Below are positions 32,618 to 34,270 of a stretch of 64,000 nucleotides of DNA, piece by piece; the first letter of the stretch is position 1; every line of letters starts with the position of its first letter. Both the position numbers and the translations under genes were made by a program. A model generated the notes under the pieces. It saw nothing but the letters and a program-made list of their open reading frames with translations, had not been told where the DNA came from and made no database searches. This stretch comes from a bacterium (GTDB lineage: Bacteria > UBA9089 > JASEGY01). The DNA is taken from positions 2,367-66,366 of the forward strand of contig JBFMHI010000003.1 in NCBI GenBank assembly GCA_040753085.1, in the 5' to 3' direction.

Positions 32618-34270
32618 TTATTCTACTGAGACAAGTTCTTTAAGTGCATCGAGCTTTTCTTGAATCTCGGGGTGAATCTCATCTTGTTTCATCTTGGCCG
32701 CAATAAGATAGAAATCTCTATGTGGTGTGGGAAAGTCAATGTTGTTTAAGAGTGGACCAAGAAACTCATCACTAGCTTTAATTCTTGTGAGAGAAACATG
32801 GTCACTAAAAAGATCCGTATTCTTTGGAACCTGCTTCCAAAATGCCTCTTCTATTTTGCTGTCAATAAGAGGGGAGTTCACATAGCGTTTGATGGCATCA
32901 GGAATCAATAAATAATTTTCAATCTCATAACGACGCCAGCGGACTACTTTTAATCCTTCTCTGATCATTTCTTCGTCTGGCTCATCTCTACTATCTCCAT
33001 CAAGGATACACATCCCCTTTACTTCAGGAAAAACAGCCCTTAAGGCAAAGAAATGGGTTTTCGCCTCTTTAAGGGACCGACCCCCAAGGTGATGTACAAA
33101 AACCCCTTCAAGAAATTTTTTTACTGGGTGTTGTAATATTTTTGCCCATTCGCGCAATATTCGTTCGTCTGATTCACCTTCAAGATAAAGAACTCCACCA
33201 GTCTCATTTCCACGCGTGAGATCTATAGTGCGAAGCCGTTTCAAGGCTTCACGGACTTGGTCTCGTTCAACTTTTTTAACAAGTCTCTTTACTTTTCTCC
33301 CCACCATAGAAATAATTCTCGTTGGGTCTGTAGCATCAAGAAATACCTCTGAATGAGTCGCAATTAGAAGTTGACAACCTCTTTCTTGAGAGACTTTTTT
33401 CAAGAAATCATATACTTCTCTTTGAAGAATTATATGAAGATGGGCATCTGGTTCATCAAAGAGTAAAATTGTTGATGGCCTAGCATAAAAGAATGCGAAT
33501 AACATCAGGACTTGCAGAGTTCCGCTTCCAATGTTTGAGATATCGAGTGGCCGTCGTTTATCCTCTTCGCGATATTCACAAACAATAAATGGTTGTCCAA
33601 TAGAGTATTGTGGCATCTGCAATTCTATTTTAAAAATTTCGTTTATCCCTTCTTTAAGTTTATCCCAATTATCTTTATCTTGCGAAACCTCCCATAAAAG
33701 ATTACGAATAATCTCACCTGGTCTCCCCTGTCCTATAAGAAGGTCTTGATAACCTATGTCATGCTTAGGCTCCTCAGCTGTAATCCCTGAAAAAGGAGGA
33801 ATATGAACGATTCGTAATGATTTAATCTCATCTTGAATATCGTATGTTTTCTCCTTTGATGGTCTGGCATATACCATTTCAGGGTTGGCATACTGGAATT
33901 CCATAGACCATTCCCACTCTTTATCTCTTATCTTGCCATTAATGCCAATCTCTATTAAATTTGGTGTTCCTGGTTTTATACCTTCCCCTTTAGCCCCGGT
34001 CTGACGGCCAGACCATAATAAATTCATCTCTCGGAGAGGGAATATGGTAAACTCTTTTCTTGTCATTGGTATTCCTGTTCGTTTTTTAGCACGTGGCTTC
34101 CTGCTTCTTTCTTCCATCCATCGTTGAAGTCCAAAATACCATGTAGCAATGGCTTGCAAAAGGGTTGTTTTCCCAGAATTGTTAGGACCTGCCAAAAGAA
34201 TTACATCTTCTAATTCAAATTCTTGTTTTTCAAATAATTTGAAGTTCTTTATAGTCACTTTTGTAATCAT
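32618..34270 (-). CDS. ABC/AAA-type ATPase fused to a Toprim/DUF4435-like nuclease domain: OLD-family / Gabija GajA / PARIS-like candidate antiphage protein
   Basis: Walker A GPNNSGKTT, signature-like NIGSGTLQ, Walker B ILLFDEPDAHLH, H-loop IATHSE; C-terminal YLEGESDE ... CILDGDSRDEP ... RYEIENYLL acidic motifs consistent with Toprim metal site. Confidence 0.6.
   Translation of the reverse strand: MITKVTIKNFKLFEKQEFELEDVILLAGPNNSGKTTLLQAIATWYFGLQRWMEERSRKPRAKKRTGIPMTRKEFTIFPLREMNLLWSGRQTGAKGEGIKPGTPNLIEIGINGKIRDKEWEWSMEFQYANPEMVYARPSKEKTYDIQDEIKSLRIVHIPPFSGITAEEPKHDIGYQDLLIGQGRPGEIIRNLLWEVSQDKDNWDKLKEGINEIFKIELQMPQYSIGQPFIVCEYREEDKRRPLDISNIGSGTLQVLMLFAFFYARPSTILLFDEPDAHLHIILQREVYDFLKKVSQERGCQLLIATHSEVFLDATDPTRIISMVGRKVKRLVKKVERDQVREALKRLRTIDLTRGNETGGVLYLEGESDERILREWAKILQHPVKKFLEGVFVHHLGGRSLKEAKTHFFALRAVFPEVKGMCILDGDSRDEPDEEMIREGLKVVRWRRYEIENYLLIPDAIKRYVNSPLIDSKIEEAFWKQVPKNTDLFSDHVSLTRIKASDEFLGPLLNNIDFPTPHRDFYLIAAKMKQDEIHPEIQEKLDALKELVSVE

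Follow-up and report, generated by a model that had tools for sequence, protein, structure and literature searches.

A single-chain ABC ATPase-Toprim protein as a candidate anti-phage defence protein of the OLD superfamily

An ATPase and a predicted nuclease in one chain

A stretch of 64,000 nucleotides from a bacterium of the lineage UBA9089; JASEGY01 (GenBank assembly GCA_040753085.1, contig JBFMHI010000003.1, positions 2,367 to 66,366; called the window here) contains a gene for a protein of 550 amino acids (aa), in which an N-terminal ABC ATPase is followed by a predicted C-terminal Toprim nuclease domain. This is probably a self-contained, single-chain anti-phage protein of the OLD superfamily that works by abortive infection, and its nearest relatives are the fused AriA-AriB (PARIS-like) proteins. 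Fused ABC-Toprim defence proteins are already well known, and the gene described here is a divergent, uncharacterised relative of OLD and PARIS proteins. A first-pass annotation, made from the letters of the DNA alone, had proposed an OLD-family or PARIS-like defence candidate. The analysis supports that proposal, as in substance it found neither a C-terminal region devoid of Toprim-type matches nor the distribution of a core gene.

In the list of open reading frames (ORFs), the complete coding sequence is read from the minus strand and occupies positions 32618-34270; it starts with ATG and has its stop codon at 32618-32620. All positions are those of the window, and all parts of the gene named below lie on the same strand. 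The first methionine is almost invariant in the family alignment (A1). A 100% identical protein has been deposited at NCBI as 'MAG: AAA family ATPase [bacterium]' (MAG, metagenome-assembled genome), and more than 3000 homologs were retrieved, the best 120 of which are full length (~550 aa) with 54-77% identity. Because of the identical deposited protein and these homologs, the ORF is regarded as a real gene and not a chance reading frame. The six short motifs that had been quoted for it are all found in the translation, starting at aa 28, 269, 303, 363, 422 and 449.

The ATPase half

The N-terminal ABC ATPase domain covers aa 1 to ~330 (33281-34270) and is of the OLD/AriA type (AAA_15/AAA_21), as seen with Pfam, PDB sequence matches and Foldseek. 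On the whole protein, Pfam gives AAA_21 at 1.8e-25 (91.1 bits) and AAA_15 at 2.3e-24 (87.2 bits), which bears out the earlier description of this half as an ABC/AAA ATPase. The rule used by Rousset et al. 2022 to detect PARIS asks for AAA_15 at 32 bits or more or AAA_21 at 27 bits or more, plus DUF4435 at 27 bits or more (PMC9122126); both ATPase scores lie above these values.

The motifs of the domain are well kept, both in alignment A1 and in a divergent set of 67 relatives that share 28-53% identity with the 550-aa protein. In the Walker A motif or P-loop, GPNNSGKTT (aa 28-36, 34163-34189), residues G28, N30, N31, G33 and K34 are invariant in A1, and K34 is kept in 66 of the 67 divergent relatives. 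The Walker B motif is LLFDEPDAHLH (aa 269-279, 33434-33466), with D272 and the catalytic E273 each present in 66/67, and the H-loop is IATHS (aa 303-307, 33350-33364), with H306 present in all 67. A further motif, GSGTLQ (aa 248-253, 33512-33529), is taken as the likely ABC signature from its position upstream of Walker B; here G248, S249, G250, L252 and Q253 are invariant in A1, and G250 also in alignment A3. Between Walker A and this signature-like motif the model has one helical insertion, a hairpin at aa 184-213. The retention of the Walker A lysine, the Walker B aspartate-glutamate pair and the H-loop histidine in 66-67 of the 67 relatives argues for a working ATPase.

This half matches several PADLOC models through the ATPase that they have in common (NsnB, AriA, AriAB, mad3, Old, GajA and PtuA). 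For the whole protein AriA reaches 4.9e-27 and AriAB 1.9e-24 (84.4 bits); the Old model stays below both (69.9 bits, E 4.6e-20), and its best-scoring stretch is the P-loop region at aa 2-44. Against the PDB the order is a different one. There, the best sequence match is the class 1 OLD protein of Thermus scotoductus, TsOLD (6p74), at 5.5e-11 with the single sequence and 5.1e-10 with the family profile, while AriA (8ux9) is far weaker, at 4e-3 and 2e-4 respectively, and limited to the Walker B region. In Foldseek the full model finds GajA on top (8.7e-11, ~684 columns), and then PtuA and TsOLD (1.2e-9), with the ATPase domain dominating the results.

The Toprim half

The full model was made with AlphaFold2 from a 33-sequence alignment and has a predicted local distance difference test score (pLDDT) of 78, with the C-terminal blocks mostly at 83-96. 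Because the ATPase domain swamped the Foldseek search of this model, the C-terminal domain was refolded alone. In this form, aa 335-550 give a pLDDT of 84.6 and a predicted template modelling (TM) score of 0.82. A Foldseek search of the isolated domain against the PDB returned solely the C-terminal Toprim regions of the Xanthomonas and Burkholderia OLD proteins (6njv, 6nk8), with probability 1.0 and a TM score of ~0.5 over ~220 columns. Since these regions alone were returned, the modelled fold is assigned to the Toprim of the OLD/AriB type.

Within the domain, a predicted Toprim catalytic core with a Rossmann-like beta-alpha-beta arrangement spans aa 359-456 (32903-33196). It is followed by a helical subdomain at aa 457-550 (32621-32902), where AlphaFold2 places helices at 457-546 with high pLDDT and which is also part of the Foldseek alignment. 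The core carries three acidic motifs. The first is LEGESDE (aa 363-369, 33164-33184), with E364 in 65 and D368 in 67 of the 67 relatives; the second is ILDGDSRDEP (aa 422-431, 32978-33007), which holds the pair D424-x-D426 and in which D424 is found in 67/67; the third is EIENYLL (aa 449-455, 32906-32926), where E449 is present in 64/67 and E451 and Y453 in 67/67. W445 is likewise present in all 67. The acidic cluster that had been pointed out from the letters therefore corresponds to conserved residues, as E364, D368, D424, E449 and E451 are each kept in 64-67 of the 67.

The spacing of these residues (E, then D four positions later, ~60 residues to D-x-D and ~25 more to E-x-E) resembles that of AriB, whose metal ligands are E26, D30, D88, E90 and E122 (PMC11464382). 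E364 and D368 are spaced as E26 and D30 are, and D424 comes 60 residues after E364, compared with 62 between E26 and D88. A one-to-one equivalence with the AriB ligands would follow from this, judged by spacing and not by superposition. The half thus combines a predicted Toprim fold with acidic residues of the AriB metal-binding kind.

Sequence searches behave differently from the fold comparison. Those made against the PDB with the whole protein, with profile A1, with the C-terminal profile A4 and with the C-terminal half of a Nostoc homolog gave ATPase matches or noise, and neither AriB nor an OLD Toprim was among them. The Toprim assignment therefore rests on structure together with PADLOC profiles. 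With the C-terminal half alone, PADLOC reports AriB (3e-5), AriAB (1.1e-4), HEC-04 weakly and nothing further. When 32 divergent C-terminal halves from the family are put to the same models, AriAB matches 17 and AriB 7 (best 1.3e-8), and the Old, GajA and AbiL nuclease models match none. These AriB and AriAB matches are significant but weak, and they were judged without the coverage thresholds of PADLOC. In the query, the AriAB profile aligns without a break over aa 239-465, that is, across the junction of the two domains. None of the OLD Toprim sequence models matched the C-terminal half. Of the original description of this half as a Toprim/DUF4435-type region, the Toprim part holds up through the Foldseek matches to OLD regions, the AriB and AriAB profiles and the conserved acids; the DUF4435 part does not, with scores below threshold, and the expected match to OLD Toprim models is missing as well. 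The current Toprim and DUF4435 models of Pfam miss the nuclease domain of this clade.

Between OLD and PARIS

OLD and PARIS cannot be told apart fully in this case: the ATPase half is nearest to class 1 OLD by sequence and the Toprim half nearest to AriB by profile. The protein is filed here as an OLD-superfamily ABC-Toprim fusion with an AriB-like nuclease. It is not a formal member of PARIS, because its DUF4435 score was tested and falls short of the cut-off in the detection rule.

The closest likeness is to the fused AriA-AriB proteins (AriAB in PADLOC, PDLC02981; 'PARIS merge' in DefenseFinder). They too have an ABC ATPase of the AAA_15/AAA_21 type and then a DUF4435-like Toprim in one chain, AriAB is the model that most of the matching C-terminal halves of the family hit, the acidic residues are spaced as E26, D30, D88 and E122 of AriB, and relatives of the gene occur in BREX and restriction-modification (R-M) loci. 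In contrast to them, the protein stays below the Pfam DUF4435 threshold that defines PARIS, and its 550 aa fall short of both the 694-position AriAB profile and AriA plus AriB taken together (464 + 305 aa). AriA also has long coiled-coil insertions, whereas the model shows the single helical hairpin mentioned above. Unlike canonical PARIS, the family is not carried by phages or satellites. The AriAB profile of PADLOC does reach the clade, and rules for PARIS that are based on Pfam under-call it.

The two-gene PARIS of E. coli B185 (PDB 8ux9, 8v46) has the same two domain types, a comparable logic of a predicted ATPase sensor and a Toprim effector, and a link to anti-restriction sensing, which here comes from R-M and BREX neighbourhoods. 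It consists of separate proteins that form a 6:3 complex from which AriB is released on binding of Ocr (PMC11464382). In the present case there is one chain instead of separate AriA and AriB chains, and the sequence match to AriA is weak (2e-4).

Class 1 OLD proteins such as P2 Old and TsOLD provide another possible placement. A strict class 1 OLD nuclease would nick or degrade DNA, as is known for P2 Old, TsOLD and the class 1 OLD of Vibrio, and would not be an effector of the PARIS type that cleaves tRNA. It may sense the state of the host, such as inhibition of RecBCD, instead of recognising a phage protein directly. A single gene without a conserved partner is the defining context of this class (PMC10568477) and is what is found here, together with an N-terminal ABC ATPase of OLD type; the length is near the 528 aa of TsOLD, which is the best PDB match for the ATPase and scores 1.2e-9 with the full model in Foldseek, and the Toprim-plus-helical regions of OLD are the best match of the C-terminal domain by fold. 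Set against this, the Toprim models of OLD and GajA fail on the C-terminal half here and in the 32 relatives, where those of AriB and AriAB succeed; the PADLOC Old score is lower than those of AriA and AriAB and peaks in the P-loop; and the linkage to R-M and BREX fits the anti-anti-restriction logic of PARIS. A strict class 1 OLD nuclease is consequently an unlikely reading, though one that keeps appreciable weight beside that of a PARIS-like fusion.

Several other systems share parts of this arrangement. Gabija GajA (class 2 OLD) and the OLD protein of retron Eco8 also have an ABC ATPase plus Toprim in one chain. Gabija was rejected, since there is no adjacent GajB helicase (the gene is flanked by hisG and by the gene for a cohesin lipoprotein) and the C-terminal half has no match to the GajA model; UvrD-type helicases are also not among the recurring families that adjoin the relatives. 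Retron Eco8 was rejected on an NCBIfam score of 28.9 bits against a cut-off of 250, with no neighbouring reverse transcriptase in the window and no Rfam non-coding RNA in 30000-37000, and reverse transcriptases do not recur next to the relatives either. In the cases of MADS MAD3 (54.9 bits against a cut-off of 420) and Septu PtuA (40 bits against 500), also rejected, partner genes are absent and the NCBIfam matches are confined to the P-loop region.

A lost methyltransferase neighbour

Directly upstream of the ATG lies what appears to be the remnant of a methyltransferase gene of the Eco57I/TaqI_C class, consisting of its last ~20 codons (minus strand, 34284-34343, 63 nt) and detected by tblastn and by the span of DNA homology. 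This stub encodes '...IWGLTKEELKEIKLSL' and is 75% identical (E 3e-7) to the C-terminus of the protein encoded upstream of the homolog at locus L006. The homolog in question (L005/L006) is the closest one known from the search, with 77% identity, and has an intact upstream methyltransferase gene that overlaps the start of the ATPase by 4 bp. DNA homology between the window and L005/L006 runs from 34333 to 32633 only. The upstream protein of L006 has a weak TaqI_C match; the longer homologs of this protein contain PF07669 (Eco57I) and have been annotated as SAM-dependent DNA methyltransferases. Because of the identity of the stub to the L006 gene, the limited extent of DNA homology and these Eco57I/TaqI_C homologs, the ancestral locus appears to have held a methyltransferase and ABC-Toprim pair of which the methyltransferase has since been deleted. 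An identification of the lost gene as PglX was rejected (BLASTP to Nostoc PglX, E 1.5), and the broader Eco57I/TaqI_C class is what the data support.

R-M is also the one theme that recurs when the 86 same-strand genes next to the relatives are compared, and R-M or BREX genes are seen in ~10% of loci. The domains ResIII, N6_Mtase, Eco57I, N6_N4_Mtase, DUF1156, TaqI_C and MmeI_hel recur there two to three times each. As an example, a Nostoc homolog is flanked by pglX and pglZ in a BREX-1 locus. It is the one distant plasmid homolog whose match includes the Toprim domain (aa 1-480 at 29% identity, E 1e-37, with the motifs aligned), its best PADLOC model is AriAB (110.6 bits), and like the query it has no DUF4435 match. 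In agreement with this, a published survey reports Toprim-linked ABC ATPases of the OLD type within the BREX and related loci of at least 1242 taxa, and reads these proteins as suicide effectors that serve as a backup when anti-restriction proteins are deployed (PMC12839542).

The stub raises the question whether the gene could be the orphan of a two-gene methyltransferase/ABC-Toprim module, R-M or BREX-like, which depends on its partner and would then be inactive or decaying here. Both the stub and the overlapping gene pair of the 77%-identity homolog are in line with this. It is nevertheless improbable: the ORF is intact with all catalytic residues that are invariant in the family, the gene has a strong promoter-like site of its own, and ~90% of relatives lack an R-M neighbour, so that the protein would be autonomous in most genomes. 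In three further contexts, moreover, members of the methyltransferase family do not regularly have an ABC-Toprim gene after them, and because of this the pairing looks opportunistic and not obligate. A self-contained protein therefore remains the preferred reading.

Spread and mobility

A profile of the C-terminal domain was searched against 1.84 billion representative sequences. With a limit of E<=1e-3 it finds 766 clusters (at 50% identity), and with E<=1e-10 it finds 384. Nearly all of the full-length members listed have 535-615 aa, with the C-terminal domain starting at about residues 320-380, and the architecture appears to be fixed. At least 457 species carry the gene, in more than 15 phyla, out of ~185,579 species representatives with one genome per species. 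Carriers are found in Ignavibacteria, Latescibacterota, Chloroflexota, Acidobacteriota, Planctomycetota, Verrucomicrobiota, several proteobacterial classes, Gemmatimonadota, Nitrospinae and others, as well as one Bathyarchaeota MAG, and they are almost all uncultured environmental bacteria. Among the carriers listed, the identity of the homologs is unrelated to taxonomy.

Individual loci show how different the surroundings can be. In the Candidatus Bathyarchaeota MAG (L078, 6001-7698) the homolog is full length with 35% identity, which may reflect cross-domain transfer or a binning error. In two Longimicrobiales MAGs (L068 and L072), the matches span query residues 1-331 and 1-321 only, i.e. 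the ATPase half, and these genes may be split, ATPase-only or truncated. An Ignavibacteria MAG (L001/L008, 7444-10563) has a 72%-identical homolog between the genes for pyruvate:ferredoxin oxidoreductase subunits, in the order POR/PFOR_II, DUF3795, homolog, TPP_enzyme_C/PFO_beta_C; the gene seems to have been inserted in a metabolic operon, and no mobility gene is visible. In one lineage (L002, L003 and L007) the homolog is found between enolase and ftsB(DivIC)-recO, together with MNT (NTP_transf_2) and HEPN genes that vary in number and order, in what appears to be a small variable defence or toxin-antitoxin islet.

All-against-all clustering of the flanking ORFs of 80 loci gave no conserved partner, with the commonest family present in 6 of the 80, and the 86 adjacent genes fall into 115 Pfam families; most of the neighbours are housekeeping genes. 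A comparison with an empty site was partly successful. In a relative with a 91%-identical hisG, a cobD-like gene is found upstream of hisG and the ATPase-Toprim gene is absent there; the genes that flank hisG differ on either side in this relative. In a second one, with a 92%-identical hisG, the contig ends 42 nt upstream of that gene. The ATPase-Toprim gene also coincides with a trough in G+C content, 0.37-0.41 compared with ~0.47-0.53 in the flanks. Because of this trough, its own promoter-like site and hairpin (described below), the patchy spread, the differing neighbours and the absence beside hisG in a relative, the gene appears to be accessory and to move horizontally. Universal conservation in the core genome of the lineage, which would have been at odds with a defence role, is thus not what is seen.

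The same observations bear on a reading of the protein as an ABC ATPase with a housekeeping role in DNA repair or in the maintenance of the chromosome (like RecF, RecN or SbcC/Rad50) and with an accessory nuclease domain. Weak Pfam matches to SMC_N (4.6e-12) and AAA_23, PDB sequence matches to SMC and Rad50 heads, the mostly housekeeping neighbours and the high conservation across phyla could all be taken in its favour. Patchy presence in so few of the species representatives, absence beside hisG in a close relative, the G+C trough and a neighbourhood that differs in nearly every genome, even amid pyruvate:ferredoxin oxidoreductase subunit genes, make it very improbable, as do an NCBIfam RecF score of 29 bits against a cut-off of 172 and the fact that defence ATPases make up all of the best family matches.

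A number of results do weigh against an anti-phage, PARIS-like protein. The family has zero matches in 50,697 phage records and five weak ones among 72,556 plasmids, nothing related to defence is adjacent in ~90% of the loci, and for a defence gene the 54-60% identity kept across phyla is unusually high. With regard to the relationship to PARIS, the ATPase half is by sequence nearer to class 1 OLD (6p74, ~5e-10) than to AriA (8ux9, 2e-4 to 4e-3), and HMMER finds no link to the solved AriB chain of E. coli even via family profiles or with the Nostoc sequence as a bridge. DUF4435 (PF14491) scores 12.3 bits on the whole protein and 14.3 bits on the C-terminal half, against a cut-off of 27, and reaches E<0.01 in just 3 of the 67 divergent relatives (best 7e-6). 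In the nuclease itself, D426, the second aspartate of the DxD pair, is kept in just 32 of the 67 and replaced by N in 11. The defence role of the clade, its trigger and its substrate are all things that we infer.

Proposed mechanism and significance

By analogy with PARIS (PMC11464382, PMC12409363) and OLD (PMC10568477), the ATPase heads would dimerise on ATP and act as sensor and gate, with the Toprim site held inactive in the resting state. A cue derived from the phage would shift the state of the ATPase and license a two-metal Toprim nuclease. Because of the linkage to R-M and BREX, an anti-restriction protein is a plausible cue. The nuclease would then cut nucleic acid of the host or the phage and halt the infection at the cost of the cell. 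Its target would be tRNA if the domain acts like AriB, and DNA if it acts like OLD; the chances of RNA and DNA are roughly even. Since sensor and effector are one polypeptide, activation would require a conformational or oligomeric switch, and not the release and dimerisation of a nuclease subunit as in two-gene PARIS.

A bolder version, held tentatively and rather doubtful at this stage, is that the clade is a distinct compact single-chain branch of ABC-Toprim immune proteins. In this case its gating mechanism would be one that has not been described so far, and the protein may be a portable guard that fires when methyltransferase systems of the R-M or BREX kind are inhibited; its unusually high conservation might then come from a conserved cellular target such as a tRNA.

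If active, the protein would be a widespread, compact, one-gene version of the theme of ATPase-gated Toprim nucleases known from OLD, PARIS and Gabija, in lineages on which experiments are almost never done. With its single chain of 550 aa, it would offer a convenient minimal model of how an ABC ATPase licenses a Toprim nuclease without subunit release, and of the choice between tRNA and DNA cutting. Annotation pipelines currently give such proteins just the label 'AAA family ATPase'. Together with the relative in the BREX locus, the stub of the methyltransferase gene is a further example of the reported tendency of such modules to ride with restriction systems. None of this overturns the current understanding.

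The locus and other features of the window

The gene lies between hisG and a gene for a cohesin-domain lipoprotein, as the first-pass annotation had it. The former is at 31507-32376 (minus strand), and its homologs carry PF01634/PF08029; the latter is at 34755-35573 (minus strand), with a PF00963 match at 2.9e-9. Three toxin-antitoxin modules had also been placed nearby. One component of each is recognisable 4-10 kb away (a ParE toxin at 27802-28107, a PIN protein at 24562-24972 and HicB at 23915-24148), while the small partner ORFs have no Pfam match.

A promoter-like site on the minus strand (TTGACA, 17 nt, TG-AATAAT; 34499-34527) is found ~230 nt upstream of the ATG, with 11 of 12 consensus positions matched and the TG of an extended -10 element; it is a consensus match only. 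At the other end, a hairpin with a perfect 14-bp stem and a 7-nt loop (minus strand, 32584-32618) starts at the stop codon. Seen both in the sequence and by RNA folding (-23.3 kcal/mol, z -3.4), it has no T-run and is possibly a terminator or an element that stabilises the mRNA. A tandem repeat, AGCCAAT x4.3 at 32566-32595, overlaps the 3' arm of this hairpin and reaches just past it, in the spacer before hisG. A scan of 30000-37000 with Rfam found zero families.

Arrays of the heptamer CGAGCAT occur at 34577-34654, 35806-36114 and 55369-55424. They have up to ~36 copies, in both orientations, and are intergenic; they lie on either side of the cohesin-lipoprotein gene and appear again 20 kb away, with 45 pattern matches where 0 are expected by chance. 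Such arrays could be a substrate for recombination or phase variation. As they form a dispersed microsatellite, they were rejected as a part of the ATPase-Toprim gene.

What lies between murJ and the archease gene varies. In the window this slot holds a gene at 29096-29827 (minus strand) for a repetitive, coiled-coil, membrane-anchored protein of 243 aa with low G+C content (0.35-0.40), and in the relative with the 92%-identical hisG (L088, 2629-3263) an HTH_17/PIN_3 toxin-antitoxin pair instead. Elsewhere in the window there is a giant ORF of 3255 aa (10298-20065, minus strand), and the G+C content swings within 44001-48000, from 0.61 in 44-46 kb to 0.41 in 46-48 kb, against a background of ~0.48.

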